Assembly: GCF_000009705.1 (NCBI RefSeq)
Contig: NC_003240.1
Span: 154,615 to 186,614 of the forward strand
Length of the DNA stretch: 32,000 nt
Source: Nostoc sp. PCC 7120 = FACHB-418
GTDB taxonomy: Bacteria; Cyanobacteriota; Cyanobacteriia; Cyanobacteriales; Nostocaceae
Direction of reading: 5' to 3'
Under the pieces are notes generated by a model that made no database searches, had not been told where the DNA came from, and saw nothing but the letters and a program-made list of their open reading frames with translations. The position numbers were made by a program, and so were the translations under genes. Positions 12,631 through 30,967 of the stretch are shown one piece after another (the stretch's first letter is position 1; each line of letters begins with the position of its first letter).

Positions 12631-13137
12631 TTAAGCAAGCATTTCCACACACTCGACCACTTGAGCAGAGGTCACTTGTTGCGCGATCAGAAAGTCAACG
12701 AGTCCATCAAGTTTTTTACGGTTGTAGACGGTAGAATAGCCTTGGATTCGGCGTTCTTTGCAGAACTGTCGCAGCTTCCGCGCACCTAAATCCAAAAGCT
12801 TCTTCCTTTCTTCCTTAACGTCTACTAGCACAAGCTGTCTAGCTTCATCCGCAACCCCAGTTTCAACAACTGGCGGAGCAGTTTCAATAATGGAAGATTC
12901 TGGTTTAGAAAATTCTTCCCAAACAGAAGCAGCACCAACACCAGTCAAATCCCCATGAGTTTCCAAAACTGGCAACTCTTCAGAAATCACCCCAACGCTA
13001 TTACTAACTTGAAGTGATACTGATTGAGCAGGGACAAATATCACATAGAAGATTGGGAAGACCATCAAAAACAACTCGATTGGAAACAAAACATCGTTAA
13101 CAGATTGCACAAAAGGCGATATTGCAAAAGCAGACAT
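12631..13137 (-). CDS. hypothetical membrane protein with SAP/Rho-N-like C-terminal helix pair
   Basis: N-terminal TM (LFPIELFLMVFPIFYVIFV). C-terminal LRQFCKERRIQGYS..KKLDGLVDFL. GGAGG lies 9 nt upstream of the ATG. Confidence 0.6.
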   Translation of the reverse strand: MSAFAISPFVQSVNDVLFPIELFLMVFPIFYVIFVPAQSVSLQVSNSVGVISEELPVLETHGDLTGVGAASVWEEFSKPESSIIETAPPVVETGVADEARQLVLVDVKEERKKLLDLGARKLRQFCKERRIQGYSTVYNRKKLDGLVDFLIAQQVTSAQVVECVEMLA

Positions 13138-13408
13138 AATGTGGTTCCTCCATGAATTACTGATGGGCGGCGTTTAGCGGCTTACCACCCAGTAGCGGGG
13201 GAAACCCCCGTACTGAGTGAAAGCTTTTACACGTATCCCAGCCAATAGCAGGAGAAAGGAGGATAAATTGCCTTTTTAAGCAATTAGATGAACTAAGTTT
13301 TCCAAAATTTGCAGATGTTGAATTCTAGAGATTATTAATTCAAAATACGGGAATTGCAAAAATGCGATTTTTCCGGCTTGTACTCGCAGCTTTTAGAAAC
13401 CTCCTTAT

Positions 13409-14674
13409 TCATCTCAACACTCCATATTTTTTACTCTTAAGGTAGTTAACGTAGCTAACCAAGTTGTAGTTATATCTGAGTTCTTGAGGAACGAAAGTTG
13501 AGTAAGGATGCAGCGATACACCATCACGACGAAAGCAATGACAGGGCGCATATATATCAAAAAAGATAGATATTTCATCACCATCAACTTCGATTTGAGC
13601 TATGCCCTTAAGTTCCTTTGCAAACTCTAAAACTTGTCCTGATGCTACATAGTCAAAGACCACTACATTTCGAGTACGGAAATACTGGATGTAAGAAAGA
13701 AGTGTTGCTTCCATACCAAGCTCAAGCAATCTGTCAGAATGTTTAAGCAAGATACCGGAATAGGAAAAAGAAAACCTACGGTTAGCGTATTCATCCCACA
13801 AGATAAGATTGCCATAAAATTTGTAAATATTCGCTTGATTGAACGATATTTCTCTATTTAAATTTTCGACAACAGCATCATCTTCAAATGGGAACAACGC
13901 CTTACGTTCATCCCATTGCTTATCTGGACAGCAACCATTTTCAAACCATCCATGTGGATGAATACCACAAACAATATTATTGGCACCATGCAGTAAATTA
14001 CACCCAGCACATACTCGCAAATAGCAAGAACTAAATTCTTCGCTATTAACTGCATTAATATAGCGTCGGTGTATATCTAAATGCTCCTCTAAAGCTTCAC
14101 AAGATAAAGGTTTATACGAGGAGAATGTTTGTCCAATTAATCTGTCTGGATCGGTTTCATCATAGATTACTGCCAAGTCGTCAATTTGGTGAGAACGTAA
14201 TTCTTCGTAAAGTACGAATTTCCGATATGGTTCTTCCTCAAATCTAGAAACAACCAAGCACTTTGAATCAGAATGTCTTGCAAAATTCATCACCGTGTAA
14301 GTGTAAATTGAAGGCAGACAATCAGATTTTTCAGAGTTCTCAGCTTTTGTTAATACAAGCGGTTTTATGTCAGCTATTTTTGCAGTTTCTCTACTCGAAT
14401 TAGTTTCCTCCGATTCTTCAACAATGCTTAAGAAAGCACCACCCAAGGAAGCAAAAATAATTCCGGTAAAGCCCAATACAATAGCACCAGTGCCAATATA
14501 GACAATTTGTTCAGAGCGTTCTTTCTCGACGATTGGGAATCCGCCCTTAGCTAAGTACAATAAGCCCAAACCAGAAAAAGTTGCTACAGTGCCTAAAGCA
14601 ATAGCAGTCAAAGACACCATTCCAAAAGCAGCATTAAGGTTTCTCAAGCCATTAAACGCAAACTTCTTCAACAT
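13409..14674 (-). CDS. hypothetical membrane protein with Cys-rich motif
   Basis: 421 aa with two N-terminal TM segments. Motif CAGCNLLHGANNIVCGIHPHGWFENGCCPD. Confidence 0.7.
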   Translation of the reverse strand: MLKKFAFNGLRNLNAAFGMVSLTAIALGTVATFSGLGLLYLAKGGFPIVEKERSEQIVYIGTGAIVLGFTGIIFASLGGAFLSIVEESEETNSSRETAKIADIKPLVLTKAENSEKSDCLPSIYTYTVMNFARHSDSKCLVVSRFEEEPYRKFVLYEELRSHQIDDLAVIYDETDPDRLIGQTFSSYKPLSCEALEEHLDIHRRYINAVNSEEFSSCYLRVCAGCNLLHGANNIVCGIHPHGWFENGCCPDKQWDERKALFPFEDDAVVENLNREISFNQANIYKFYGNLILWDEYANRRFSFSYSGILLKHSDRLLELGMEATLLSYIQYFRTRNVVVFDYVASGQVLEFAKELKGIAQIEVDGDEISIFFDIYAPCHCFRRDGVSLHPYSTFVPQELRYNYNLVSYVNYLKSKKYGVLR

Positions 14675-14945
14675 AATTTATCCCTCCAAAATGCAGGTCA
14701 CAAGATTTTTAATTACTCTTGCCCCGGCACAAATTGGGATTTGCTGAGAACTACACTACTAACCTACCCCTTACTCTATTAACAATTCCACAACTATTTA
14801 ATAGATATGTACTCGTTAATTTTCAGTCTCAGTAGTAGTTTCATTCCCAATGGTGATAGCAAGAGTCGAACTTGCTTTGTTGCTGAAAACAACAATCTAA
14901 CCGAACTGGAATATCACCAAATAATAATATTTAGAAATAGCATAT

Positions 14946-15425
14946 CTACTTTCCAAAAGTCCAAGTATTAGTTTCGTTTAATTCCAATTCTTCAAAACAG
15001 TTAACAAAACCCGTAAAATGAAAACATCTTAGCGGCAGCCGAGATATTAATAGTAAAGAAAAATTTTCTAGTTGAGCCAACTGTTGTAATCTCAATAAAT
15101 CGTCGCTAAAACTATCGCTAACAAAGTGCAATCTATCAAAATTATCAATCACAAGTAGTCTATTGAATCCTTCAGATAATTCGGTTACTATATTTTGCCA
15201 ATCCTGCTGGTAGTACAAATCAAAACTCATAGGAATAACATCAAATAAATGAGCCACACTAAAAGGATATTCAAGATTGAGATAAACAGATTCTAAAGTA
15301 ATATCTTTAAGTAAACAGTTTTTAACAGTAAAAGTCTTACCAATATCCTGTTTACCCCATAAATTAACATTCTTGCCTGCATTTAGTTCACCAATCAACC
15401 AAGTATATTCTTTATAACGTAACAT
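14946..15425 (-). CDS. small P-loop NTPase
   Basis: Walker A GKQDIGKT and Walker B-like LLVIDNFD in a 159-aa ORF. Confidence 0.6.
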   Translation of the reverse strand: MLRYKEYTWLIGELNAGKNVNLWGKQDIGKTFTVKNCLLKDITLESVYLNLEYPFSVAHLFDVIPMSFDLYYQQDWQNIVTELSEGFNRLLVIDNFDRLHFVSDSFSDDLLRLQQLAQLENFSLLLISRLPLRCFHFTGFVNCFEELELNETNTWTFGK

Positions 15426-15446
15426 TACTATTATCCTTTAGATAAA

Positions 15447-15923
15447 CTACAATTGTTTTGAGATTAAATGTGTGATTTTTTGATTGTGTCTTTCTAAACT
15501 ACTTCTGGAGAATTGGTTAGATACAATAAAGTTCTCTAATAAAAAATCAGGTGATTGTGAAAGTCTTAACAGCACACCATCATCACCACTACTGCGATGA
15601 TAGTAATGTACAACAGGTGATTGGATAACTGTCAGGTTATCGTTACGAATTGCTCGTCCTGTAACTAGCCCATCCATAATAAATTTAGCGGCAGCAGCTA
15701 CATTATCACTATCTCGTGCAAAATTTTTGAGATACCAATGAAACTCAATCCACACTGTACTATCTAAACAAAATTCACAGTCTCTAACAAATTCACCAAT
15801 TAAGTTTGTCCAGTACTTCTTAAGTTCAGCACTAGCTTGCCAACTCGACCGTGCCTGGTTAATAATTTCGTTCATACAAGGGGGTAAAGGCATGGTTAGT
15901 TCAAATATCATCTTCACCGCCAC
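15447..15923 (-). CDS. rusA: RusA-family Holliday-junction resolvase
   Basis: LTMPLPPCMNE aligns to ITLPWPPSNNR of E. coli RusA. ARDSDNVAAAAKFIMDGLVTGRAIRNDN aligns to [26 protein letters not shown]. Confidence 0.7.
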   Translation of the reverse strand: MAVKMIFELTMPLPPCMNEIINQARSSWQASAELKKYWTNLIGEFVRDCEFCLDSTVWIEFHWYLKNFARDSDNVAAAAKFIMDGLVTGRAIRNDNLTVIQSPVVHYYHRSSGDDGVLLRLSQSPDFLLENFIVSNQFSRSSLERHNQKITHLISKQL

Positions 15924-18090
15924 CTTTAAAGTTATTTAAAAATTCTTCGACAACGTTTCTAAATTTCTTGTATGACCTACCATCTTGACGGGATAAATTG
16001 AATACTGCTTTGACAATTTCATCAAGTTGATAGCCTTTTTGATGCAAATTCATAATTGAGTTTCTTGCTTCTTCGTCAAGTTGCACCTTAAAACTAAAGC
16101 TGCCCTCAAAATCAGTCTTAGATTGCTTAGTTTTAGTAGCAGTAGTGGCTTTAAATTTACCATTATCATTACTACTACTCTCGTCATACAGACTAGCGAC
16201 AAATTCATCAAAATCTAACCCAGATTTCCATGCTGTATAAGGATCGTTCTGGTTTTTTGCTTCCAAGAGTAATTGCTGGAAGTATTCAGGGTCTTCATCG
16301 TCAGCAACATATAAAGCTTGGAGTCGTAAAACTTCAGTCGTCTTGTACAAGAAATCACCGTATCCCAGCAAATAAACCGCACGCTTGTCTTTATCGTCCC
16401 CAAGGATGATACAACTGTCTTCAGGGCGAGTTGTAACAAAGGCTGTCTTCGCTGGAAAGTTTGAACGAATCAACGGGTCTATCACGTTTTTGTCAGGTCG
16501 CTGGGTATATAACAATACATGAATCCCCGCACCACCAGCTTTTGCAAGCAACTTCATCAGCGCAGTCTCAATGCGATCGCAGTAGTTATCATCAGAAAGT
16601 AGGTCAAAACACTCGTCAATCAGACAAATCACTCGTGGCATGATGCAATCAGGTGCGAACCGTGAGTTGTACTGTGCGATCGTTTCAATACTGCTGTGGC
16701 GCTCAAATTCCTGGTAACGCAATTCCATTTCTTCGACCAAGTAATCGAGTAAGTTAGCGGTAGACTCTGCATCACGCGCAACTGGGGCAACAAGATGGGG
16801 AAGTCCATCAAATTTACCAAAGGTCACGCGCTTAACATCTGAAAGTGCCAATCGAACAACAGAAGGGGGATATCGTCGCACCAAATACAAGATTGCGGCT
16901 TTCTCAAACTGCGACTTTCCACCCCGCGTCCGCCCACCACCAAGGATATGAGTCACGTTATCGCTATAAAGGGGAATTTCAACATAAGTGCCATCAACAT
17001 CAACACCACCGGGGATAGACACCGAATAAATGTCAGGTTCGCCGTCAAAACTAAAGTAATCACGAAAATAAGCAAATTGTCTGTCTAACCTGGGTATGTC
17101 AAATACAACTCCCCCAGGCACTACACTCACCATTGGCGCAACTTTCAAGCCTAATTCTTCACCAAGCTGCTGTACTAAGTCATTACCGATGTCTTCTACT
17201 TTTTTATAACTAACACCTCGTTCTAGTTTTACCCTAATACGGTTAAAAGTAGGGCCATTTTTGGCATCAACATACTTAGCATTAATATTAAAATCTTCTA
17301 AAGTATCAACTAATAGTTTTCCTGCTTGTCCCATAGTTAAAATATTTGAGCTAACAATCCCATTATTAGCAATTTCACTATTTAAATATTTAGTTTCTTT
17401 TAAAATAATTGAGCCATCACCTGTCACTTTTAAATCTAGTGGTTTACCTGTGGCACGCGCAACAAGCACTGCCGTTCGACAGCAATAGTTTTTAATAAAT
17501 TTATCTTTAGATTGATTGGCTAAATCAGTAAAATAACTAATTGGTTTATTATTTAATAATAAATTATAAAGGTTCTCTTGAACTAATTCATACCCAATCT
17601 GCTTAAGATAAATATTTTTTATAGACTCAATATATTCAAATAAAGATTCAATTGGCGAACTACTAACTATCTCAATCATTTTTTGATACACGTTATTTTG
17701 CTCCCACTGTGATGGCATTCGATGGAGATGGATATATTCAAGTGCATAACGTACAAACTCGTACTGATTTAAAGTACAGTGTTCTGCACATATTGATAAT
17801 ATTTCATTATCGTTCGTACCTGCAATTACTGATTCGTATATTACCTGAAATAAAAATTCTAAGTTAAATTCAACAACTGGACGTGATAATTTTGCTCTAA
17901 AGTCAATCTGCTTTAAAACAGTTTCAGCATAAAAAACCATTGCGTCCGGTAAAGCTTCCTGTACATTCTCTATAATCTCTTCATTGCTCAAACCATCTTG
18001 TTTGGCCTGTACAATTGCAGTCCAAAGCTGTTGTTTTTGAAATTCAGTATTGTTGTTATTAATATACATTTCTAACATTACTTTTCTCAA
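15901..18090 (-). CDS. FtsK/SpoIIIE-family DNA translocase (no N-terminal TM segments evident)
   Basis: FtsK-alpha-like NAKYVDAKNGPTFNRIRVKLERGVSYKKV. Walker A GGGRTRGGKS (about 16910-16945). Walker B VICLIDECFDLL. Also GIHVLLYTQRPDKNVIDPLIRSNFPAKTAF. Confidence 0.92.
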   Translation of the reverse strand: MRKVMLEMYINNNNTEFQKQQLWTAIVQAKQDGLSNEEIIENVQEALPDAMVFYAETVLKQIDFRAKLSRPVVEFNLEFLFQVIYESVIAGTNDNEILSICAEHCTLNQYEFVRYALEYIHLHRMPSQWEQNNVYQKMIEIVSSSPIESLFEYIESIKNIYLKQIGYELVQENLYNLLLNNKPISYFTDLANQSKDKFIKNYCCRTAVLVARATGKPLDLKVTGDGSIILKETKYLNSEIANNGIVSSNILTMGQAGKLLVDTLEDFNINAKYVDAKNGPTFNRIRVKLERGVSYKKVEDIGNDLVQQLGEELGLKVAPMVSVVPGGVVFDIPRLDRQFAYFRDYFSFDGEPDIYSVSIPGGVDVDGTYVEIPLYSDNVTHILGGGRTRGGKSQFEKAAILYLVRRYPPSVVRLALSDVKRVTFGKFDGLPHLVAPVARDAESTANLLDYLVEEMELRYQEFERHSSIETIAQYNSRFAPDCIMPRVICLIDECFDLLSDDNYCDRIETALMKLLAKAGGAGIHVLLYTQRPDKNVIDPLIRSNFPAKTAFVTTRPEDSCIILGDDKDKRAVYLLGYGDFLYKTTEVLRLQALYVADDEDPEYFQQLLLEAKNQNDPYTAWKSGLDFDEFVASLYDESSSNDNGKFKATTATKTKQSKTDFEGSFSFKVQLDEEARNSIMNLHQKGYQLDEIVKAVFNLSRQDGRSYKKFRNVVEEFLNNFKGGGEDDI

Positions 18091-18755
18091 TTATTAGAAT
18101 GATAAAATTGAGTTAAGGACTAAAAAATTCACTATGAAAAATTGGAATAAGTGGAATGCAGAAGAAGAAAAACTTCTTGCTAGATTAGTTACAAAATGCT
18201 CAAATATTGATGAAATACATCAGGAATATTTTCCATATAGAAGTAGACAATCAGTAAAAGGAAAACTGAGGTTACTAGGATTAACACTTGAACCACAATG
18301 GACTGTCGAGGAAGAAGAAATATTACATGAACTTTACTCTGAGCTATCACCAAAGATGATACAATCTCAGTTCATGCCTCATAGAACTCTTCCCGCAATT
18401 CACGCTAAAGCACAAAGGCTTAACCTAAAACAACGCCATAGATGGACAAAAGATGAAATACGATACCTCAAAGATAACTATTTAACTGAAACTTATGAGG
18501 TCATAGGAAAAAAATTAGGTAGAGACGAAGCAGGGGTAAGAGCGAAAGCTCAAGCAATGAAATTAAGAAAACTTGAGTCGTACACAGTTAATCATAATTA
18601 TTTTAGCACTCCAAATTTAGAAAATTGCTATTGGGCAGGATTTTTAGCAGCTGATGGATGCATAAATTATTCAAGTCATGGTTATATTCTAGAAGTTGGA
18701 CTACAGGAACAAGATTTAGAGCATTTAAAAACATTAAAGGATTTACTTGAATGCG

Positions 18756-18764
18756 ATCATCAAA
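18756..18764. repeat. target-site duplication (left copy)
   Basis: atcatcaaa immediately outside the left IR. Confidence 0.9.
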
Positions 18765-18782
18765 GGGAGCATCTCACTTTTT
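18765..18782. repeat. IS terminal inverted repeat (left)
   Basis: gggagcatctcacttttt. Confidence 0.9.
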
Positions 18783-18790
18783 AAAGTGGC

Positions 18791-19857
18791 TCAAACAAAC
18801 AATAATCCATTGAGGTAAGCACAGCGATGAGCCAGAACTTGAGGCACATTTTCTCGTTTCCATTGCGCCCCAGAAATCTTTGTTCGACGGTCAATCTGTT
18901 TAACGGCAGATTCAACAGACCCAGAACCAATGGAACAAATTTCTTCAGCTTGATGATATTCGTAGTTGATGATGCGATGACGATGCTTATCGAGATAACG
19001 ACAAAAGTTTTGTACTTGTTTACCCTGACAACCAGTAAATAAGGCTTTAGCTTCTTCGACTTGACCTTTCCATAGTAAGGCTTGTGCCTGTTTCAAGCGT
19101 TTTTGTGAACCCCCAATTTTGTGAAGGTTTTCTATCAAATGAAACCAATCAAGTACTTCTCGACGTTGTACATCAGGTGCTAATTGGTCAATAATATTCC
19201 AAATGCCGTCATGCCCATCACCAATACAAGTGACTGTACTAGCCAGTAGTTGGTCATTCACCCAATCAATCACAACCTGATTATCTTGAAAGGACGTTCC
19301 AACAGTTTTGAGATGATGTAAGCTAATCGCTTTATAGCCAAGCCACGCACATACTTCTCCTGATTGAGTCCGAATGCGGATATTTCCACCATCAACACTT
19401 AATTCTTCAACTGTATGTTCTTGTGTTGGTAATTCAAATTTCTGACGATGTACCAATCTCTGTTGACTGCTGCGGGAGATATATACACCCGTAAAATACT
19501 CGATATCTGATGCCGCATCTTCATAGCTGACATTCGCGCTCACCCGTAAACAACAAGTTTCTAGATATGGACTCAGTTGGCTACTTGGCTCGACTTCTAG
19601 CTCAATAGCTTGCTTGCTCGTTATTGGTAACTCTCCCAGGATACTTTTGAGTCGTCGTTGGTATCCTGCGGTGGTTCCTGTAACTGCTTCGACAAAAAAA
19701 CCCCTACTTCTGGCATTACATGCTTCTGCATTTGATTCCGCACTGCTTGTTCAATTCCTGCAAGGCTCGTTAGCCTTTCTGGTGACGTGTCTTCGTACAA
19801 TATTTTAGCTATCGCTTTGACATGTTCTTGAAGAGCTTGCTTTTGTTCTGGAGTCAT
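18791..19857 (-). CDS. IS transposase in two overlapping frames (orfA 19621..19857; orfB frame open from at least 19738 to 18791), probably joined by a -1 frameshift
   Basis: DDE-like blocks LSVDGGNIRIR, TCIGDGHDGIWN and LDWFHLIENL. Slippery T TTT TTG lies in the orfA zero frame at 19693-19699 (minus strand). Confidence 0.8.
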
Positions 19858-19912
19858 CGTTAAGTAAATACACTCATCTTACTTATCCTGACTGATTTTT
19901 AACCTCTTTGCA

Positions 19913-19930
19913 AAAAAGTGAGATGCTCCC
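19913..19930. repeat. IS terminal inverted repeat (right)
   Basis: aaaaagtgagatgctccc is the exact reverse complement of 18765-18782. Confidence 0.9.
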
Positions 19931-19939
19931 ATCATCAAA
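19931..19939. repeat. target-site duplication (right copy)
   Basis: atcatcaaa immediately outside the right IR. Confidence 0.9.
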
Positions 19940-20426
19940 TAGCCGAAATGCATAACTCTAATCAAAAACATCAATATCCATTTGGGAAAACCTACACTAA
20001 TGGTAAAGCCTTTAGATTGAGAATAAATAGTAAACAAATATGTGATGATTTAATTGGCAGATTTAATATTACACCAAATAAATCTTTGACTCTTGAACCT
20101 CCTGTTCTAGATAATGAGCAATTGATAAAAGCATTCATTATCGGATTAATAGATGGGGATGGTGGCGTAAACTTATTCAAAGTCAAAGGAAAAGTTAATA
20201 GCATAGAAATAGACCTCACAGGAACAATAGAAGTACTCAATTGGGTAAAAAACTGGTTTGATATTTGGGTTCCTAATAATCACTACAAATGTGCTAAACC
20301 CAAACAAAGCATGAATTCAAAAGCTTATCGATATCATGTAGCAGGAAAACGAGGAATAGAATTATGGAAAATACTATCTCAAGTTAATGTACCTAAGTTA
20401 AAACGTAAATGGCACAAACCTTTACC

Positions 20427-21263
20427 CTATTTTTGACTTCCATAAACTACCAACATTTTTTGATAATAATTACGTAACTCTTCTAAAGATTTTGGGTTTT
20501 GATTGTACGAGTTGCAAATAAGACTGGCCCATACCCTACCTACTTTGCATACAGCAGTATCAAACCTTCCTGCTTCAATGTCACTTAAAGCATTATTACG
20601 ACGAATATATTCAATTGCCATCTTGTCCTGAGAAGCTGGACTAAAATCTTTTAAGTTTAACTTTGGTTGAAGGTCATACCAACTTATATCCAACATTTGA
20701 TAAGCACCAGCCGCAGTCGAACAAACATTTTTACTATTAATAGGAGCGCACTGTTTCTTTAACGGGTGTGTAGAAAAATCATTAAAAGTTCCGTTAAATA
20801 CTAACTTGCGATAACTTTCTGGCTCACTGGTTCCTGTTTCTGCCCAACGAATTGTTGCTAAAAAAGCACTCAAACGTGGTGAATAAAGATGTGGTAAGTA
20901 ATCTCTTGCACTAACTCTTCTTTTTAAACTATTTGACGACAATGAATAAACACCAGTACCTTGAGAAATTGAGAAATAAATGCCTAAAGTAATTAAGGAA
21001 GCAGTTGACAAATGAATGGGTTGAAACCGGGATATAAATTGACGACGAGGACTGAAAATCAATCCTACTAAACCACCAACAATAAACCCAAATTTCCAAC
21101 TATCAACTGCCTTACCGAAACTACGCACTTGACAGACAGTATCCGCACCCTTTGATACCAATCCACATGGCAGTGAAGCTACTCCATAGGAAAATGCAAC
21201 AGAGCAGGCTGCACCAACTACACCTGATATAAAAATCGGTACAATTTGCATTGCTCTTGCCAA
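20427..21263 (-). CDS. membrane-anchored lambda-R-like lytic transglycosylase (GH104 lysozyme-like)
   Basis: AFLATIRWAETGT, FNDFSTHPLKK and STAAGAYQMLDISWYDLQPKLNLKDFSPASQDKMAIEYI...VWASL align closely by eye with phage lambda R. The N-terminal ~110 aa is hydrophobic. An ATG lies at 21251. Confidence 0.9.
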   Translation of the reverse strand: MARAMQIVPIFISGVVGAACSVAFSYGVASLPCGLVSKGADTVCQVRSFGKAVDSWKFGFIVGGLVGLIFSPRRQFISRFQPIHLSTASLITLGIYFSISQGTGVYSLSSNSLKRRVSARDYLPHLYSPRLSAFLATIRWAETGTSEPESYRKLVFNGTFNDFSTHPLKKQCAPINSKNVCSTAAGAYQMLDISWYDLQPKLNLKDFSPASQDKMAIEYIRRNNALSDIEAGRFDTAVCKVGRVWASLICNSYNQNPKSLEELRNYYQKMLVVYGSQK

Positions 21264-21277
21264 TAGCTAAATAACTT

Positions 21278-21976
21278 TCAACGGTTTGCTAAATATTCGT
21301 GTAAATAAGGACGAGGGTTCTGCGCTACACCATTAATCTGAACTTCAAAATGTAAATGTGGCCCTGTCGAAAACCCCGTACTACCTACTGCTGCAATCAT
21401 CTGCCCACGGACAACTTGTTGTCCCTGCTGTACATACAGCTGACTGGCATGACCATAGAGAGTAGATAAACTTCCCTGATGCTGAATAATAACTGCTTTG
21501 CCATAACCATCCTTGTCACCCGCAAAAACCACTCGGCCAGCATCAACTGCATAAATTGGAGTACCCTTGGCTGCGCCAAAATCAATTCCTCTGTGAAACT
21601 TGCGATCGCCTGTAATGGGGTGTGTCCGCCAACCAAATTCACTAGTTACAGGAGTACCAGCCGCAGTTGGAAAGGCAATTCGACCGTTATTTAAAACCTT
21701 ATTACTAACAACAGTTCTAGGTAGTATTAGATTCTGGAGAGATTTAACTAACAATTGAGATTCAATCCATCCAGAAACCTGGGGAATGACCATAGCTGCA
21801 ATTACAACTGAGGTGGCGATCGCATATCTCCAACTTTCACTGGAATTAGTATCGGCTGTCTCATCCAAACTAGTTACAGTCGAATTACTAACCTCCTTTT
21901 TACCGTCAGTTTCAAGGATTATTCGCATTGCCTCAACGCCTTTTTGCATTAGCAGGAGAAACCTGCCAACAACCAA
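21278..21976 (-). CDS. M23-family metallopeptidase (peptidoglycan endopeptidase)
   Basis: HRGIDFGAAKGTPIYAVDAGRVVF and GSTGFSTGPHLHFEV. The likely true start is the ATG at 21928, 4 nt after the upstream stop (21933-21935). Confidence 0.9.
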   Translation of the reverse strand: MVVGRFLLLMQKGVEAMRIILETDGKKEVSNSTVTSLDETADTNSSESWRYAIATSVVIAAMVIPQVSGWIESQLLVKSLQNLILPRTVVSNKVLNNGRIAFPTAAGTPVTSEFGWRTHPITGDRKFHRGIDFGAAKGTPIYAVDAGRVVFAGDKDGYGKAVIIQHQGSLSTLYGHASQLYVQQGQQVVRGQMIAAVGSTGFSTGPHLHFEVQINGVAQNPRPYLHEYLANR

Positions 21977-22274
21977 TCTTTGCAGTACTCAATACTTCCT
22001 CAAAATCATTCTGAGCTACACGGCAATCGGGAGAATTTAGGCCATCTCCGGATGTTGCAGATTCCTTAACTTTAGGGGAATAGTGCGTAGAGACAGGATT
22101 AGAAGATATATTCACGCTAGGTGCAGCAGTAGAAACAGCAGTCGGCGATAAAAATTGCAGCTTTTGTACCAATGCCACAGCATTACGCCAGTTATAAAAC
22201 TGCAAATATCCTGGTTGCAAAATATCTGCAATCCATACCAACAGTACGAACCAAAAAATTGCCTTTACCCACAT
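21933..22274 (-). CDS. hypothetical membrane-anchored protein
   Basis: 113 aa with N-terminal TM AIFWFVLLVWIADIL. The start overlaps the upstream stop as TAATG (22272-22276). Confidence 0.55.
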   Translation of the reverse strand: MWVKAIFWFVLLVWIADILQPGYLQFYNWRNAVALVQKLQFLSPTAVSTAAPSVNISSNPVSTHYSPKVKESATSGDGLNSPDCRVAQNDFEEVLSTAKIGCWQVSPANAKRR

Positions 22275-22762
22275 TATTCCAATTGTTTAACCACAGGCAG
22301 GGCAAAAGAAGGAACTTCTTTGGGTACAACTTCAATCTTCTTCCCAGATGCATATCCTGGCCCGGTATAACTGCCATTAAGGAGAAAATTCAAGAGCATT
22401 ATTAACAACCACACTCCCACAGCAGCGACACCCACAGGAGATTTAATTACATCAGATAAAAAATATACTGGATACCAGCCAAATCTCCAGGGATTCTGCG
22501 GGTGTAGCCGATGTGCTTTCCAAGTCTCAATATAGGGAATTTCTATCTGAGGAACTCTCGGCTTATAGGCAGTAGGCGCATTAATATACCTAACTTCTAC
22601 GGGTTGAGTATCATAAGTGGTCATAGGAGAAACGCTAGGTTGGTGATTTACCATTCCTCCTTGCTGTACCTGCTGCAACATATTTTGCAACCGATTGGCA
22701 GGCACAATTGCTCCACCTTCAGAATAATCAACATCAAAATTACGGCGTTGATTTCTACTCAT
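22274..22762 (-). CDS. hypothetical membrane protein
   Basis: 162 aa with TM VGVAAVGVWLLIMLLNFLL near the C-terminus. In-operon position. Confidence 0.6.
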   Translation of the reverse strand: MSRNQRRNFDVDYSEGGAIVPANRLQNMLQQVQQGGMVNHQPSVSPMTTYDTQPVEVRYINAPTAYKPRVPQIEIPYIETWKAHRLHPQNPWRFGWYPVYFLSDVIKSPVGVAAVGVWLLIMLLNFLLNGSYTGPGYASGKKIEVVPKEVPSFALPVVKQLE

Positions 22763-22788
22763 AATATGACCTCAAATTAATTAACTAA

Positions 22789-23355
22789 CTAGCTGGCGGG
22801 TTTATTATTTATTTGGGAGTTAGTATCTTCCCAGAAATCTTCCTCTTGAAGTTGGGCGTAAAACTCTTCTGGAGATAACATTCCAGTTTGGTTTTGTACT
22901 CCATCTTCAACAACCTGATTACCATCTACTCGCCCTAATCCAGAAACAGCAGAACGAGGAGAAAATTGAACGACATTTTTAGCAGAAAACTCGTTATTAA
23001 ATCTCATCCCATGAGGCGCAACTGGGGGGATTAAAGAAGGCTGAATATCAGTATTAGAAACACCAACATTAAGTTGTTGATTGCCAGAATTTCCCAAGTT
23101 ATCAGAAACTTCATCTGTTTCTTCAACTGCATTGTTATAGTCAGAAATTCCCCAACCCAAAAAACAAGCAAATCCAGCCATAAATATAACTGCACTCATC
23201 CAATGCACTCCTGAATTGGGAGATGGCATCATTTCAACCGTTGTGCGAGTTGAACCTTCCAGGGTAGTACGAATAGGGGTACGTTTGACTGCCGCTACAA
23301 CATTGAGCGAACACAAAGCTATGCAAATTATCGCAGCAGCAAACTTAACATACAT
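22789..23355 (-). CDS. hypothetical secreted/membrane protein
   Basis: Signal-like N-terminus MYVKFAAAIICIALCSLNVVAAV and a second TM AVIFMAGFACFLGWGI. GGGGAG lies upstream of the ATG. Confidence 0.65.
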   Translation of the reverse strand: MYVKFAAAIICIALCSLNVVAAVKRTPIRTTLEGSTRTTVEMMPSPNSGVHWMSAVIFMAGFACFLGWGISDYNNAVEETDEVSDNLGNSGNQQLNVGVSNTDIQPSLIPPVAPHGMRFNNEFSAKNVVQFSPRSAVSGLGRVDGNQVVEDGVQNQTGMLSPEEFYAQLQEEDFWEDTNSQINNKPAS

Positions 23356-23359
23356 GACA

Positions 23360-24202
23360 TCACTCCCCTGATTTATTAACAGGTTTTCTATTAGAAATTG
23401 GCTGGGGTAATTGCTTCTTCATTTGTTGGAGATATATTCGCCTTTCCTCCTCCTTCTGGCGTATTTTCTCGCGGATGTCTGCCACCTGTGCCATCTGCTC
23501 TACTGGATCTAAATACCCCCGCGCCCGTAATAACTGCGCCTGTGCAAGAGAGTATGGTTCTTGAGCATTCCTAATCTGAATTAGCATTTGATTGAGATCG
23601 ACTGATGGTTGAGATTCCAAATTCTGGGCGTAATCAATCGCCTCTAATTTACCCAAGATCAAAACAGCAGCAGCCCCGGTTGGTAACTTCTCCTCAACTT
23701 TCGTACCATCGGTTTTGCGGTATCCCCAATAAAAAGTATTATTTCCAGAAGCCGCTTCTAGTAAAACATCCAGCGAGTTGAATTTAACTATCTCCAGTGC
23801 CGGCATATAGTGAAGGCGGTAAAACCCAGATTTCTCATTAGCCTGCATTCTGGATATTTCACCCCGCAGTTGCTGTCCCCACAATGCCGCCGCTAACTGT
23901 CGCCAGCCTGTAAGAGTAGGGGCACCTTCTACTGAGGAGTAACTGGACAGATGGTCTATATTGTAGTCAGTACGGGAAAGTTTTTCTAAGTACACTTCTC
24001 GAATTTGGGCAACTTGCGCCTTTACTTGCTGTACCTCCGATATCTGATTACCTGGAATTTGTTGCTTCCATCCCACCATTAATGCAACCGCCCCAATAAC
24101 AGACAGCGCACTAACAGTCGAACAAACCGTCCACAAAGTGACATTTACCTTTTGTCTTCTTCGACTTGGTTGTTTATTTCGGACAGGTGTAGGAGTAAAC
24201 AT
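23360..24202 (-). CDS. hypothetical membrane-anchored protein
   Basis: 280 aa with a basic N-terminus and then TM LWTVCSTVSALSVIGAVALMVGW. GAGGGG lies upstream of the ATG. Confidence 0.7.
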   Translation of the reverse strand: MFTPTPVRNKQPSRRRQKVNVTLWTVCSTVSALSVIGAVALMVGWKQQIPGNQISEVQQVKAQVAQIREVYLEKLSRTDYNIDHLSSYSSVEGAPTLTGWRQLAAALWGQQLRGEISRMQANEKSGFYRLHYMPALEIVKFNSLDVLLEAASGNNTFYWGYRKTDGTKVEEKLPTGAAAVLILGKLEAIDYAQNLESQPSVDLNQMLIQIRNAQEPYSLAQAQLLRARGYLDPVEQMAQVADIREKIRQKEEERRIYLQQMKKQLPQPISNRKPVNKSGE

Positions 24203-24212
24203 AATTTACCCC

Positions 24213-24431
24213 TCACGTATTATCAACAACCAACTGCAACTGAGGGCGCTTGTTTAACTCGCGTGCGATCGCAATTCCCGCACCACCCACAACTATCCCA
24301 GTAAGTAGCAGCAGAGGATGCAAGGCAAGCGTGGCCCCCACTCCCAATAGCTGTCCTACTATCCCAGAAACACCCAAGTTCATTAACAAACCACCCGCAG
24401 TGTTAACCAAAAAGTCAAATGCTGCACTCAT
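24213..24431 (-). CDS. small Gly-rich two-TM membrane protein
   Basis: 72 aa: LLMNLGVSGIVGQLLGVGATLALHPLLLLTGIVVGGAGIAIA. Confidence 0.55.
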   Translation of the reverse strand: MSAAFDFLVNTAGGLLMNLGVSGIVGQLLGVGATLALHPLLLLTGIVVGGAGIAIARELNKRPQLQLVVDNT

Positions 24432-24491
24432 ACCTGCTCCCTGGCAATAATGCGACTAAAATCAGTAATTGCCTTGATTTTGAAAAGTTGA

Positions 24492-24752
24492 TTAGGTTTT
24501 TTGTTCGTCCCTAGTAAACCAAATTATTACTAGTGACAAAATTAAACCAACTAATTCACCTATACCCACACCAATCAAAATTGGCTGAATACTCGGAATT
24601 TCCTGCCTCTCTTGTGTTGGGGGAACCGCTACCCATGTCCCAACCACAGTACCAGCTACTACCGAAAGTAAATTTATACCAACTGCTTGGGTAGATGTTT
24701 TTCTCAAATTAAGTAAACTCTCATCCCGTATTCGATAGCAGATGGGTAACAT
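24492..24752 (-). CDS. small two-TM membrane protein
   Basis: 86 aa: LLSVVAGTVVGTWVAV and ILIGVGIGELVGLILSLVIIWF. Confidence 0.55.
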   Translation of the reverse strand: MLPICYRIRDESLLNLRKTSTQAVGINLLSVVAGTVVGTWVAVPPTQERQEIPSIQPILIGVGIGELVGLILSLVIIWFTRDEQKT

Positions 24753-24760
24753 CTGAGCTA

Positions 24761-25390
24761 CTATTTCTTCTGAGATTGCCCGGTTTTCGGCTGCGAGGAC
24801 TTCAACTGTCTCGGCTGCGGTGTCGATGTACCGACCAACAGAGGATGAGTCTCTTCCCCCCAGTTCACCTTGCCGAAAAAATCGTTATCAATACGCGAAT
24901 TGATTCGCTCTTGCGCCTGGTTGTAACCAGCCGCAACGGAAGTATTACCTTCAGCCAGCGAACTACTGCCATGAAAAACAAATTCTTCTAGAGCAAGTGT
25001 GGAAGATTCAAGCACTACTTTATGGCGTAATTCTCCTAACTGAATTCCCCTGTCTGCATCCCGATAAAGTATTCCTACAAAACTATCGGAGGAAGCTTGT
25101 TCTGGATCTACGCCAAATCGCTGTTTAATATACTCGCGCTTGTCGAACTTATGTTCGCCTACTTCTGATTTGCGATCGCGCATTGCAATCAAGTGCTGGG
25201 CAGCTTCTTCCAAGGACATACCTTCACGAGAAGCTATCTCTTTAAGTTGAACTAATTGCTGTTCGATTGTTTCGTCAAGCGTATCATTTGGCTGCAAAGC
25301 TAAATCTAACAACCGACAGCAGGTACGTACTACATCAAGCGACACCTGCAAAGTCTCTGCCACTTTGTTGATATGCTTCATTGCGCTCAA
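24761..25390 (-). CDS. hypothetical soluble protein
   Basis: 209-aa ORF. An ATG at 25381 is preceded by GGAG. No motif recognised. Confidence 0.6.
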   Translation of the reverse strand: MSAMKHINKVAETLQVSLDVVRTCCRLLDLALQPNDTLDETIEQQLVQLKEIASREGMSLEEAAQHLIAMRDRKSEVGEHKFDKREYIKQRFGVDPEQASSDSFVGILYRDADRGIQLGELRHKVVLESSTLALEEFVFHGSSSLAEGNTSVAAGYNQAQERINSRIDNDFFGKVNWGEETHPLLVGTSTPQPRQLKSSQPKTGQSQKK

Positions 25391-25748
25391 TTCTCCTAAT
25401 TACTGATTGCACAATTGGGTTATTTTTTTCTTCATCAGATATATGCTTGGTCAAAAAGTTATAAAGGGTTAAGCCATTGACTTTTTGTAAATAAGCATCT
25501 AAGCCACCAGCAGGAATTACTTGCTGTAAATATTCCTTATACGTCAACCGCCGAATTTTGGTAGCAACGTAGAAAACATCAGCAATCTCAACTGTTGCTG
25601 CATCAAAATATCCTCCCCGCTTTCGCGGTTTTACTATACCCGCATAGGGATACCACTTTTGTAAAGCAGAGATTGAAATTCCGTATCTTTCGGCAAGTGT
25701 TTTTTGGGTGTAGATAACGTTTTCACATATCATCAAACTCAATTCCAA
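25335..25748 (-). CDS. HTH DNA-binding protein (MerR/excisionase-like), first gene of the envelope operon
   Basis: YTQKTLAERYGISISALQKWY. The likely ATG start is at 25733; the listed start is TTG. Confidence 0.6.
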   Translation of the reverse strand: MELSLMICENVIYTQKTLAERYGISISALQKWYPYAGIVKPRKRGGYFDAATVEIADVFYVATKIRRLTYKEYLQQVIPAGGLDAYLQKVNGLTLYNFLTKHISDEEKNNPIVQSVIRRIERNEAYQQSGRDFAGVA

Positions 25749-26124: not shown

Positions 26125-26712
26125 TTACTCTTGTTGAGAAATAGCCTGCTGCTGTTTCTTTACCGCGCGAGCTATCAGAGGGGCTTTTTTCTCTAATCCT
26201 TGTAGAGTCAAATCACCATCCAAATAAAGTTGATACCATTGTTGACGCTGGCGCAAGACTCTTTCGTCATCCCGTAACCGCAACCGTTCCAAAGTAAATT
26301 CTGCCCTTTGAAGTTGTTGCGGAGGAACTTTATCTGTTAATACTAATTGTAGGGAAGGAAGTAAAATTTCAAATTAATCTTCTCCCAAATCAAAAGGATC
26401 AAGCACCTGGTCGTCAAGTGTACCTTTACTACTATTAATCCAAGCAGAAGCAAAGCGTAAATTGCTCCATTCGTAAGCTAAATTGCGATAATTTTCACGG
26501 CTGCGATAATGATCTACTGTACCAACTGGTTCATACATAACGCTATAGCCACAAAGATTATTAAATCCATCGGCTAAAGAACTTTTGAAAGGCGACCAAT
26601 AATCTCTGGTTCCTTTTTTGGGATCAGGATTTTTTTCCAACCAAGCATTTCCCGGTTGTCGCACTTTTTCATCAAAATTACGCGGTTCTGGAGGAGGATT
26701 AAATGGCATCAT
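26125..26712 (-). pseudogene. PtuB-like (TIGR02646-type) HNH-family gene interrupted by an in-frame TAA
   Basis: CGYSVMYE..TVDHYRS..LAYEWSNLRFASAWINSSKG, then TAA at 26374-26376, then 82 further sense codons in the same frame (FEILLPSLQLVLTDKVPPQQLQRAEFTLERLRLRDD...). An ATG at 26712 lies 5 nt after the ATPase stop. Confidence 0.6.
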
Positions 26713-26717
26713 CTGTG

Positions 26718-27908
26718 TTATACCTCTGATAACCCAAAATTTCTTTTCTCCGTTGTAACTATCCAACGGGGCCAAAATGGGTCATGTCCTGGTAAAACTC
26801 TTTGAAGTTCCTGATGGATTTGTGTTGGTCTTCTCAAGTGTTCTGGAAACGCATTCATATCATCATTACGCATCCAAGCCTCTGCTGCTTCAATTGCGAT
26901 TTCTGCTTCTTTGGAACGGGCTTGTTTGAGACCAAAAATTTCTGAGGTTAACCATCCAACTGTATCCCCTTGTTTTGACCAAGGTACTTCATCAAGGCTA
27001 ACTTCTCTATCTTGTAATTTAAATAAAAATAGTTGATCTTCTTGCTCATTAAAATTTGGCTCTAAGGAAGCAAGAACAAGTGGAGAATGAGTAGTTACTA
27101 AAGCCTGTATCTTCATCCTGGGTTGTAATTCTTTCACTACAGCTAAAATAGCTGGTAGAATCACTCTCTGCCAACGAGGATGTAAATGAGATTCAATTTC
27201 ATCAATTAGTAAAACTATCTGATTTACTGGCTTTTGTTGCCGTAATTCAGCAGCTTTTTTATGTTCGTACCAAGTCCACACTAGTAAATAAGCTAGTCCC
27301 AGAATACGCTTCATTCCGGCTGATGTTTGAGTGACAGGAACATTCCCATAAGGTAGGTTAACTGTAGGAATATCGCGCACATCTTCAATGGAAACTCGCG
27401 TTGGCTCTCCCACTTCTATCCATTCTGAAGGGTGAGGTGCAAGTTTTTTAATAACATTAGAAAATAGTTGAAATGGATATTTATTTGGTTGATTTTGCCA
27501 TGTTACCCAATCTTGAATTAAACCATTACAAAGAACTTTGTTTTTTGATTTTAATCCATTCCAGAGTGTATTTGGATTAAAATTATAAGCAATATCGCGT
27601 TGGCGAGCTGGGTCAAAAACAGAAAAACTACCATCAACCCGTACATAAATAACGACCTCTTTTAATAAAGGAGGCATTTGTAAACTACGCCATTTTTGTT
27701 CAGAAAAATCAAAGTAACTCTGATATTCTCTTATATCTTTTTTATTGCTAACTATTCCTGTAATTTGCGGATTTTCACCTCTAACTTGCTGTGGGTATGC
27801 TGGTTGTTCTACCCAATTTGTAGTCATCACCCACCAAGCGATATCTAGTAACAACCGCATAACGGCATTTGGTTGTAAATAATCTAACACTCCATCTACT
27901 GAAACCAA
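26718..27908 (-). CDS. ABC-type (AAA_15/AAA_21-like) ATPase, PtuA-like, with degenerate Walker A; possibly a pseudogene
   Basis: Signature-like TSAGMKRILGLAYLL, Walker B/D-loop VLLIDEIESHLHP and H-loop LVTTHSPLV. LQPNAVMRLLLDIAWW sits where G-x-N-G-x-GKS-x-LL-x-A is expected. The only start is TTG. Confidence 0.7.
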   Translation of the reverse strand: MVSVDGVLDYLQPNAVMRLLLDIAWWVMTTNWVEQPAYPQQVRGENPQITGIVSNKKDIREYQSYFDFSEQKWRSLQMPPLLKEVVIYVRVDGSFSVFDPARQRDIAYNFNPNTLWNGLKSKNKVLCNGLIQDWVTWQNQPNKYPFQLFSNVIKKLAPHPSEWIEVGEPTRVSIEDVRDIPTVNLPYGNVPVTQTSAGMKRILGLAYLLVWTWYEHKKAAELRQQKPVNQIVLLIDEIESHLHPRWQRVILPAILAVVKELQPRMKIQALVTTHSPLVLASLEPNFNEQEDQLFLFKLQDREVSLDEVPWSKQGDTVGWLTSEIFGLKQARSKEAEIAIEAAEAWMRNDDMNAFPEHLRRPTQIHQELQRVLPGHDPFWPRWIVTTEKRNFGLSEV

Positions 27909-28036: not shown

Positions 28037-28297
28037 CTAACTGTCAGAATCAAGGCTAGCTTCCAATTCTTCTATAGAAATATCTTTATATCGTGCATAT
28101 TCTGCGAGTTGCTGATTAATAGTTTCAAAATTTGCTTCTATCCTTGCGGCAATGATTTGGGCAGCAAACGCAGCAGGGGAACGACCCCGAAGCTTTGCCC
28201 AAAGCTTTAACTTCCGAAAGTCATAGGGGGATAGGGTAATTGAAAAACGAACGTTTTCCTCTGCCATGTCTAATACTTCTTCTAGCTGTGTCTTCAT
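28037..28297 (-). CDS. ribbon-helix-helix (CopG/Arc/MetJ-type) DNA-binding protein
   Basis: ENVRFSITLSPYDFRKLKLWAKLRGRSPAAFAAQIIAARIE has the typical RHH beta-strand plus two helices. Confidence 0.8.
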   Translation of the reverse strand: MKTQLEEVLDMAEENVRFSITLSPYDFRKLKLWAKLRGRSPAAFAAQIIAARIEANFETINQQLAEYARYKDISIEELEASLDSDS

Positions 28298-28537: not shown

Positions 28538-29125
28538 ATGAACCACTACAGCACCCTCAAAATCCTCCCAACTCAAGGTTTAGAACCCAGACTATTCTTA
28601 CGTTACTGCTTCGGTATAGCCGAACTTAGTCCCCCAGAACTTCTCGAAGAAGAAACCGACTCGCAATACCGCAAAAAATGTATCACTGTACTATGTGCAG
28701 TCTTAGGGGTACAAAGACCAACAGTTCGTAAGTGGGGGAGCGATCTCAACTTTGACGGAATACCCAATTACTGCAAAGTTTCACTTGCTTACATTCACGC
28801 CGCCGAAATCGTACCAAACCAGCTAAATAGCATCTTGACAGGAGAATACAATGCACCGGAAGTAGATGCTCAAACCTTTCTAGAAAAAATACTCCTTGAA
28901 GGGTTAACTGAAAAACAAATACTGCAAACTGTTTCTCACGCCAATTTTCGCGCAACTTGTGTCAAAACCCTCACGCAAGTATTACATATTGGCACAAAGT
29001 CAGTCCAAGATTGGGGTCAGGATATGTCGTTTCACAGAATGCCCAAAATTCACAAGTACACCTTGGGTTATGCCTTGGCTGCTATCTCCAAATCATCAAA
29101 AGCTTGGGACAAACAAGCAGCTTGA
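28538..29125 (+). CDS. hypothetical protein made of two tandem HTH-like repeats
   Basis: YRKKCITVLCAVLGVQRPTVRKWGSDLNFDGIPNYCKVSLAYIHAA aligns with FRATCVKTLTQVLHIGTKSVQDWGQDMSFHRMPKIHKYTLGYALAA. Confidence 0.7.
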   Translation: MNHYSTLKILPTQGLEPRLFLRYCFGIAELSPPELLEEETDSQYRKKCITVLCAVLGVQRPTVRKWGSDLNFDGIPNYCKVSLAYIHAAEIVPNQLNSILTGEYNAPEVDAQTFLEKILLEGLTEKQILQTVSHANFRATCVKTLTQVLHIGTKSVQDWGQDMSFHRMPKIHKYTLGYALAAISKSSKAWDKQAA

Positions 29126-30360: not shown

Positions 30361-30693
30361 ATGGAATTGTCAGGAAAAATACCCTCAATTCCTTGCTGCA
30401 ACCTGATTGAGCTATCTCGTCCGCTTGGAAATGAGAAACATCAAGCTCGTTATTACTTAGGTTCGTGCGCGAACCTCAAGAAAAGATTTCAGCAGCATCT
30501 ACAAGGGTCTGGAGCAGCATTTACTCGTGCTGCGATAAAACGCGGCATTGAATTCAAAATTGTCCATGTGTGGAAAACTTCAAGTAAACAAGAAGCCCGT
30601 CAGCTTGAAATTCAACTCAAACGATATAAAAACCATGCACAACTATTAAGGAGAGTGCAAAATGCCAAAACGAATTCGACAAAAACTAGGTAG
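30361..30693 (+). CDS. small GIY-YIG-domain nuclease
   Basis: ARYYLGSCANLKKRFQQHLQGSGAAFTR ... KQEARQLEIQLKRYK fits the GIY-YIG (URI) pattern. Confidence 0.75.
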   Translation: MELSGKIPSIPCCNLIELSRPLGNEKHQARYYLGSCANLKKRFQQHLQGSGAAFTRAAIKRGIEFKIVHVWKTSSKQEARQLEIQLKRYKNHAQLLRRVQNAKTNSTKTR

Positions 30694-30967
30694 ATACAAT
30701 TTGAAACATAAGTTACGTGGGAAAGTTTTGCTATCAAAGGTTACAAGCTTTAGTTGCTATCAACAAAACCATCAAGAAAAAACCTGTACAACTGCAAGGA
30801 AATTCATTCGCAATAACAATATTCAACCGCCATGCGTTATCACGGTACTCAAGATATCGGGTAGTGAGGAAAAATTTTTCTTGTCAAACAATGGACTGTT
30901 TAGTTATAAATATGCAATTGAAAATCACAAATTATTTTCACCAGAAATAGCGTCAATTGCTAGTTAA
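30662..30967 (+). CDS. questionable small basic ORF
   Basis: 101-aa ORF overlapping the GIY-YIG 3' end by 32 nt. No motif, and a competing ORF exists in another frame. Confidence 0.25.
   Translation: MPKRIRQKLGRYNLKHKLRGKVLLSKVTSFSCYQQNHQEKTCTTARKFIRNNNIQPPCVITVLKISGSEEKFFLSNNGLFSYKYAIENHKLFSPEIASIAS

Follow-up and report, generated by a model that had tools for sequence, protein, structure and literature searches.

A block of fifteen genes in a 32,000-nucleotide stretch of Nostoc sp. PCC 7120 DNA (contig NC_003240.1; the whole stretch is called the window below) serves as the conserved backbone of a mobile-element family found in filamentous cyanobacteria, mostly Nostocales, and here resides on a large plasmid. 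The block lies at 12631-25748, and its genes, named A to O, encode an FtsK-type motor (K), a RusA-like resolvase (L), two membrane-anchored cell-wall hydrolases (I and J) and a series of small membrane proteins. We tentatively suggest, with somewhat less than even confidence, that the block may be an FtsK-driven module for the transfer or spreading of double-stranded DNA (dsDNA), similar in action to the actinomycete TraB and Spd proteins without being homologous to them.

Gene order on plasmids and chromosomal islands

Relatives of K were sought in one genome per species, which gave 106, and the comparisons described here use the best 80 of these (50 close and 30 divergent loci). All of the best 80 of the 106 belong to filamentous, mostly heterocystous cyanobacteria, the few exceptions being exceptions by name only. 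In the 30 divergent loci, which include chromosomes of Rivularia, Calothrix and their relatives, K is 43-59% identical and the genes still run A-B-(C)-D-E-F-G-H-[M23 and/or NlpC/P60]-[lambda-R lysozyme or an unrelated 241-residue protein]-K-(RusA)-N-O. Co-occurrence of the gene set across genomes had been put forward as a check in the preliminary description of this DNA, and the recurrence of the gene order in these 30 loci bears it out.

Chromosomal copies number three in Calothrix parasitica and two in Rivularia PCC 7116. At three loci (L008, L066 and L073, from the Rivularia PCC 7116 chromosome and two metagenome-assembled genomes, MAGs) a tyrosine integrase abutting a tRNA-Phe gene lies downstream of the module, and at two others (L070 and L062, from C. 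parasitica and one MAG) there is a 44-nucleotide copy of the 3' half of tRNA-Phe without the tRNA, a half-site that is a typical att duplication. The window itself holds no integrase. The left att site of the L008 island is not present in its 10-kb flank, and walking by means of the family of gene b (described below) led solely to the ends of other copies. None of the 80 loci contains, within 10 kb of the motor, a homologue of the plasmid VirB4-like protein, VirB10 or the type IV coupling protein (T4CP) of a type IV secretion system (T4SS). More remote variants, in which E is about 30% identical (one of them in a Symploca MAG), are operons of A/B-like, small transmembrane (TM) and E-F-G genes that end in an FtsK or a HerA-type ATPase.

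Closer to the window, the module DNA is 95-96% identical to that of plasmids of 215-300 kb in Trichormus variabilis ATCC 29413, Tolypothrix, Scytonema, Aulosira, Microchaete and Nostoc, and K is 100% identical to a plasmid protein of Anabaena sp. FACHB-709. The HIP1 motif (GCGATCGC) occurs 13 times in the window against 0.14 expected, and the closest relatives are all Nostocales, in agreement with the cyanobacterial and probably filamentous host named in the preliminary description. One plasmid of the family (L003, NZ_CP063786 167526-184894) carries its own dnaN, dnaX, holA, ssb, primase-polymerase and 3'-5' exonuclease genes, an unusual set for a plasmid. Scaffold 1 of Hydrococcus rivularis NIES-593 (L013), which is outside the Nostocales, contains the same plasmid segment, 95% identical and with backbone genes, as a result either of recent transfer or of a contaminated culture or assembly.

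The Tolypothrix PCC 7712 relative is free of the endonuclease and insertion-sequence (IS) insertion found in the window, and its genes A to M are 13 genes on one strand. Because the gaps between them are only 0-26 nucleotides, they look like one operon; N and O come after gaps of about 270 nucleotides. All 15 open reading frames (ORFs) are under purifying selection (dN/dS 0.02-0.37, from comparison of the window with a relative of about 90% identity), and the lowest values are those of two tiny proteins with two TM segments (0.02-0.03). A scan for promoters and terminators gave the same counts as shuffled sequences. Compared with the RefSeq calls, the start codons that the ORF list gives to A, B, C, I, K and L are probably placed a few codons too far upstream.

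When the ORFs are searched against Pfam, PHROGs and NCBIfam and scanned for hydrophobic segments, the gene content given in the preliminary description is reproduced: its genes are all present on the minus strand where it had placed them, and most of its assignments are upheld, those of an M23 peptidase, a lambda-R-like enzyme, an FtsK motor and RusA among them. One or two TM segments are predicted for C, D, E, F, G, H, I, J, N and O, and none for A, B, K, L and M. The six TM proteins and one soluble protein that it could not place in any family (C to H, and B) find no match in the three libraries, and the same is true of N and O. It had also reported that the window lacks VirB4, VirD4 and a relaxase; none is found among the ORFs tested against these libraries, and no virion gene is found among them either.

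Motor, wall hydrolases and membrane proteins

K (15901-18090, minus strand) is a soluble FtsK alpha-beta motor that matches FtsK_SpoIIIE (PF01580, E 2.7e-21) and FtsK_alpha (1.5e-7). Its best match in the PDB is FtsK (2IUS, 2.7e-35), in an alignment that takes in the Walker A region and the TQRP motif, and the GKS of Walker A, the DE of Walker B and QRP are invariant in the K family, whose members are 670-730 residues long. Identity to bacterial FtsK is about 27-30%. Compared by family, K scores 117 bits with FtsK, 56 with EssC, 20.1 with TraB and 14 with TraD, the TraB value being that for the Streptomyces plasmid model (NCBIfam NF041214, cut-off 800, E 1.9e-4). The motor is preceded by an N-terminal domain of about 250 residues that is confined to the K family, and is followed by a conserved helical tail of about 55 residues with no detectable similarity to known domains. 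The sequence thus places K as an FtsK derivative of its own kind, outside the TraB and T4CP families. Another FtsK-like gene, 40% identical over the motor, is present on a plasmid of Pseudanabaena PCC 7367 (L007 10921-15029); it was rejected as a copy of the module as its context is different, beside a large P-loop NTPase with which it is paired, and it may belong to a conflict system.

L (15447-15923, minus strand), next to K, is a RusA-like Holliday-junction resolvase (phrog_1682, 1.4e-17, with weak RusA matches in NCBIfam and the PDB) and is found in 12 of the 30 divergent loci. In a metagenomic copy of the module a Tn7-like set (TnsB-like, TniB and TniQ; L010 12872-18482) is inserted between RusA and N.

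Both wall hydrolases are predicted to be held at the membrane. I (21278-21976, minus strand) is a predicted peptidoglycan endopeptidase of the Peptidase_M23 family (E 4.8e-36) with an N-terminal TM anchor, and in several divergent elements, for example L008 and L011, an NlpC/P60 hydrolase takes its place at the same position. J (20427-21263, minus strand) is a TM-anchored lysozyme or lytic transglycosylase of the lambda-R type (PDB 1AM7/3D3D, 2.7e-16; endolysin phrog_90, 9e-35), and its position is filled in some elements by an unrelated protein of 238-241 residues. Since the type of hydrolase changes and the position stays, wall cutting appears to be integral to the function of the module.

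Between J and K the window carries the interruption that had been described as a homing-endonuclease/IS insertion, and this is confirmed as a LAGLIDADG/Myb-like homing endonuclease gene (18134-20436, plus strand) split by an ISKra4-family IS (about 18765-19930, minus strand). Across 47 relatives the J-K gap measures 28-62 nucleotides in most, about 1170 in seven and about 2340 in the window alone, from which the insertion is judged to be secondary. The gap is a hot spot for insertion, with the endonuclease in those seven relatives, the endonuclease and the ISKra4-family IS in the window, and a group II intron in Calothrix parasitica (L011 7700-9442).

Among the proteins that match no family, E (23360-24202, minus strand) is the best conserved. 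It is a bitopic membrane protein of 280 residues with one predicted TM segment, and its profile finds just 33 relatives in 1.84 billion representative proteins. RefSeq and IMG label E and its relatives 'phage terminase large subunit (GpA-like)'; we considered this identity and rejected it, as none of Pfam, PHROGs, NCBIfam and a PDB profile search supports it. An AlphaFold model of the protein is of low confidence (pLDDT 50) and too poor for use. F (22789-23355, minus strand), which is syntenic in the divergent loci, has a signal peptide or TM segment followed by one more TM segment; G (22274-22762, minus strand; 43-77% identity) has a C-terminal TM anchor; and H (21933-22274, minus strand) is small with an N-terminal TM segment. 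C (24492-24752) and D (24213-24431), both on the minus strand, are small proteins with two TM segments each, found in 12 and 25 of the 30 divergent loci and with dN/dS values of 0.03 and 0.02, respectively.

The operon begins with two genes for soluble proteins. A (25335-25748, minus strand) is a small helix-turn-helix (HTH) protein (weak HTH_3 match, E 0.005; dN/dS 0.15) that is 40-73% identical across the divergent elements, and B (24761-25390, minus strand; 39-65% identical in those elements) has a fold not recognised from its sequence, with a weak BTB-like PDB profile match (E 0.006). PDB profile searches with B, E, N and the C-terminal tail of K returned this marginal match and nothing else. 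At the other end of the operon, M (14946-15425, minus strand) is a mini P-loop protein (weak AAA_22 match, 5e-5) present in 47 of the 50 close loci against 2 of the 30 divergent ones, and it belongs to the lineage of the window, outside the core. N (13409-14674, minus strand) combines two TM segments with a conserved domain rich in Cys (C-x2-C ... C ... C-P-D), and neither the PDB profile search nor the family libraries returned a match for it. O (12631-13137, minus strand), with an N-terminal TM segment, is 28-34% identical in the divergent elements, and its C-terminal tail looks, by eye, like a candidate SAP/HeH DNA-binding motif.

A structured element and the neighbouring genes

The gap between N and O contains a structured element (13165-13219, minus strand) that comprises a G5/C5 hairpin and two alternative helices sharing CTGGGTG. 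Its sequence, ACGGGGG-loop-CCCCCGCTACTGGGTG, is more conserved than the flanking proteins. It is present once per mobile element, on the operon strand and directly upstream of O, at about 59 loci (57 by exact pattern and 2 by covariance model), and the covariance model finds no second copy of the hairpin on the Tolypothrix plasmid. The two helices are mutually exclusive, each being 92-97% paired with compensatory changes, and one alignment column covaries with both of its alternative partners, where the counts of covariation overstate the independent events because the sequences fall into few clades. The G.U pairs work on the sense strand only. The hairpin loop varies from 3 to 8 nucleotides, and a duplex operator is therefore excluded. 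The copy in the window folds at -34.5 kcal/mol (z -3.5), and no family in Rfam matches the element. Its role may be that of a leader or switch for O, or that of the mobile element's cis-acting site.

Three genes outside the block, Z, a and b, are co-conserved with the module. The limits that the preliminary description had set therefore stand only in part: A to O form a unit, but the co-conserved unit reaches 30307 on the right, and M, as a lineage-specific gene, is not a core member. Z (28037-28297, minus strand) is a small protein co-conserved with a and b. The product of a (28538-29125, plus strand), which is divergent from the operon, is a putative Cro/CI-like regulator that is 39-76% identical in the L008 and L009 islands, and its L008 homologue has a weak P22_Cro match. 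b (29198-30307, plus strand) encodes a protein of the Alr2735 family (PF27301/PF27288), modelled as two helical domains (pLDDT 78); as a candidate relaxase or Rep it was rejected, with no significant fold match in the PDB or BFVD and a best match that is DUF3102-like (E 0.04). The a-b pair is also present without an FtsK operon within 10 kb (L092 9294-11638) and may be an independent module.

Between the operon and these genes lies a cargo pair, the Septu genes PtuA and PtuB (26374-27908, minus strand; PADLOC 2e-165 and 1.6e-44), which is found in 17 of the 50 close loci. On the Tolypothrix plasmid (L001 38644-39921) an IscB RNA-guided endonuclease lies between two ORFs that resemble a and b in size and position. 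3' of b, the region 30361-31745 encodes a small GIY-YIG nuclease, a DUF3155 protein and an IrrE/ImmA-type M78 peptidase, none of which is kept in the chromosomal islands. At its left end the window opens within the end of a giant gene (1-1051; 2585 residues in the Tolypothrix relative) with no family or PDB match, and a 731-residue protein (7638-9833), considered as a hidden relaxase or primase, was set aside with no match in the PDB or NCBIfam.

DNA transfer within the filament and its alternatives

In a cyanobacterial filament the outer membrane is common to neighbouring cells, and all that stands between them is two cytoplasmic membranes and a disc of septal peptidoglycan. Since the outer membrane is shared, a machine acting across the septum would need no outer-membrane component, and the module encodes none; the same anatomy would explain why the family is confined to filamentous hosts. 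In the mechanism that we propose, about ten small inner-membrane proteins (C to H, N and O) would build a platform in the cytoplasmic membrane, and the two anchored hydrolases would open the peptidoglycan locally, one being an endopeptidase (M23 or NlpC/P60) and the other a muramidase, of the lambda-R type or another. K, as a soluble hexameric motor, would dock on the platform through its own N-terminal domain and pump double-stranded element DNA into the neighbouring cell, with RusA clearing branched DNA ahead of the pump. Where a plasmid carries a T4SS as well, the role of the module would be to spread the DNA through the filament once conjugation has brought it in, in parallel with TraB and Spd in Streptomyces. 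We infer DNA as the substrate, its double-strandedness, the direction of transport and the septal site. A fuller proposal, that the module is an independent, FtsK-derived dsDNA machine of the TraB/Spd kind for septal transfer of plasmids and small integrative elements within the filament and possibly between filaments, with its own cis-acting hairpin or switch, is one that we consider possible and yet lean against.

The integrative and conjugative elements of actinomycetes (AICEs) offer the nearest parallel in layout. The layout of the module resembles theirs (PMC2440964) in joining regulators, a motor of the FtsK type and small membrane proteins to an integrase at a tRNA, and in having no T4SS close by. 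The module shares with AICEs and TraB plasmids a single FtsK-like motor accompanied by several small hydrophobic proteins, the lack of VirB4 and relaxase genes near its chromosomal copies (within 10 kb) and a multicellular filamentous host; K has an FtsK-type P-loop translocase domain with intact catalytic motifs, as TraB does, and relatives of the window, unlike the window itself, show a compact element that encodes a tyrosine integrase, is inserted at a tRNA gene's 3' end and has an att duplication. There are also differences. K scores below the cut-off of the TraB hidden Markov model and has no membrane association domain, and no clt repeats are found above chance. In TraB a C-terminal winged helix reads these 8-bp repeats; K carries its conserved helical tail at that end. 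The module adds two dedicated wall hydrolases and RusA, its host is a diderm, and it contains no recognisable RepSA/RepAM, Pif or Kor genes and no match to a Rep family.

Other FtsK-type systems resemble the module in part. SpoIIIE pumps dsDNA across a two-membrane septum, and the alpha and beta motor domains of cellular FtsK/SpoIIIE are the best sequence match to K, but K lacks their N-terminal multi-TM domain, has no detectable gamma domain and is encoded on mobile elements only. TcpA of pCW3 and ConQ of ICEBs1 likewise combine an FtsK-family ATPase with membrane proteins and membrane-anchored peptidoglycan hydrolases (TcpG and CwlT); those systems, however, invariably have a VirB4 ATPase together with a relaxase, and the DNA that they transfer is single-stranded; the module has none of these. 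TdtA, which serves transjugation in Thermus thermophilus (ICETh1), and the archaeal DNA-import system Ced move DNA from cell to cell with an ATPase of the FtsK/HerA superfamily and without a classical T4SS (PMC5365140), and Ced pairs its ATPase with small TM proteins. Neither has dedicated hydrolases, their hosts and envelope types are different, and the likeness of the accessory proteins is one of description only.

Several observations weigh against the transfer reading. It is drawn from anatomy and comparative genomics. By score K is an FtsK and not a TraB; the preliminary description had taken grouping with chromosomal FtsK as an argument against its proposal, and K is indeed far nearer to FtsK proper (117 bits) than to TraB (20). 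K also has no membrane anchor and no DNA-recognition domain, of the FtsK-gamma or the TraB type, that can be recognised by sequence, and neither a repeat search nor a k-mer cluster scan detected clt-like repeat arrays above shuffled controls. The most remote variants lack both hydrolases; as they keep the ATPase beside E-F-G, the link between membrane proteins and ATPase is old and the hydrolases belong to the Nostocales versions. The absence of T4SS genes from the chromosomal islands covers 10 kb around the motor and not whole chromosomes, and the islands were read without their left ends, so that their gene content is partial. The integrase, Cro-like regulator, RusA, lysozyme and small TM proteins would fit a prophage-like element as well.

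The plasmids themselves also carry T4SS genes, and a T4SS elsewhere on the replicon is something that the preliminary description had likewise held to be damaging to its proposal. A VirB4-like gene is present on all 13 complete module-bearing plasmids (by tblastn), and the Tolypothrix plasmid, the one relative in which the full set of relaxase, T4CP and VirB10 was checked, carries, all outside the region equivalent to the window, MobB and a MOBP relaxase (PF03432, 4e-21), a TrwB/VirD4 coupling protein (1.4e-29), TrbI/VirB10 (3.5e-13) and a 942-residue P-loop ATPase in the VirB4 position. The claim that T4SS genes are missing is therefore true of the window and untrue of the replicon family, and since such genes lie elsewhere on these plasmids, plasmid mobility needs no new machine. 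The original suggestion of dsDNA transfer or intra-filament spreading is thus strengthened by the synteny, the islands with no T4SS gene within 10 kb of the motor and the restriction to filamentous hosts, and weakened by the plasmid T4SS, the FtsK-like score and the lack of clt repeats.

The same plasmid genes raise the alternative that the module is an accessory of the cyanobacterial (MPF_C) T4SS, which would either open the wall or form the mating junction, or else supply a second coupling ATPase. The co-occurrence on 13 of 13 plasmids would be expected of such an accessory, and VirB1-like hydrolases and FtsK-like TcpA coupling proteins are known in T4SSs (PMC4027160). However, MPF_C-specific genes are described as lying in compact loci with VirB4 (PMC4027160), and the module lies about 50 kb from the T4SS cluster; on the Tolypothrix plasmid the T4SS genes are about 25 kb and 50-60 kb from it, with the relaxase and coupling protein 25 kb and 60 kb away. 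By tblastn the VirB4-like protein is detected on 127 plasmids of cyanobacteria, some of them from the unicellular Acaryochloris, Gloeothece and Gloeobacter; 114 of the 127 lack the module, which is on 13 only. With no VirB4, relaxase or VirD4-type coupling protein at its locus in the window, and no T4SS gene inside 10 kb of the chromosomal copies, the module does not belong to the standard make-up of cyanobacterial T4SSs, and we regard the accessory role as improbable. A cryptic tailless or enveloped virus-like or vesicle element is unlikely. In such an element K would serve as the DNA packager, with the small TM proteins as holins or virion membrane proteins, the hydrolases as endolysins or entry enzymes and RusA as a resolver of branches before packaging. 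A tRNA-linked integrase together with a Cro-like regulator, a DNA methylase, RusA and enzymes of the lambda-R lysozyme and M23 types is typical of prophages, and both hydrolases are anchored N-terminally like signal-arrest-release (SAR) endolysins. Viruses of the PRD1/PM2 type have packaging ATPases of the FtsK-HerA superfamily and many small membrane proteins. They also have a major capsid protein, though, whereas no ORF here matches a capsid, portal, terminase or tail family in Pfam or PHROGs; their packaging ATPases are short, whereas K has the cellular alpha and beta FtsK build; and the two proteins modelled, E and b, are helical and not jelly-roll. The module is, moreover, stably kept on large plasmids with partition genes.

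The proximity of K to chromosomal FtsK, the RusA gene adjoining it and the ParA-like and ParB-like genes beside the module on plasmids would also suit a maintenance or segregation device, with FtsK and RusA clearing or resolving element DNA trapped at a closing septum. Such a device would leave eight to ten membrane proteins and two wall hydrolases in the operon unexplained, the membrane domain by which FtsK is positioned at the septum is missing from K, and small integrated islands segregate with the chromosome anyway; we consider it distinctly unlikely. Very improbable, finally, is an anti-phage or conflict system with an FtsK-like ATPase. In PADLOC, K matches the FtsK-like part of SspH (4e-31) and mad8 (4e-13), A weakly matches mad1, and Septu cargo is adjacent. 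These matches of K and A are at the level of generic ATPase and HTH domains, the full component set of the Ssp or MADS systems is absent, six other module proteins scanned (L, M, N, O, B and E) match no PADLOC model, and the set of hydrolases and membrane proteins is unlike that of known systems; with no complete system found for the module, a defence role was rejected.

To our knowledge, FtsK-driven dsDNA transfer is regarded as an actinomycete speciality, and cyanobacterial conjugation is almost unstudied; we found no description of the module or of Alr2735 in the literature searched. What may be new here is FtsK-type DNA transfer on integrative elements, with unrelated accessory parts and in a new phylum. 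Whatever its function, the module corrects the widespread misannotation of E as a phage terminase large subunit and draws attention to a conserved structured RNA or DNA element that is absent from Rfam. If the transfer reading is true, it would define a new class of small integrative elements with cargo that includes Septu, IscB, Tn7-like elements and introns, and in the fuller form of an independent TraB/Spd-like machine it would be the first such system outside the Actinobacteria and the first in a diderm phylum. It might also yield compact tools for spreading constructs through Anabaena and Nostoc filaments. The module would offer specific candidate genes for tests of the movement of DNA between the cells of a filament, and a second independent case would tie FtsK-driven transfer to filamentous body plans.

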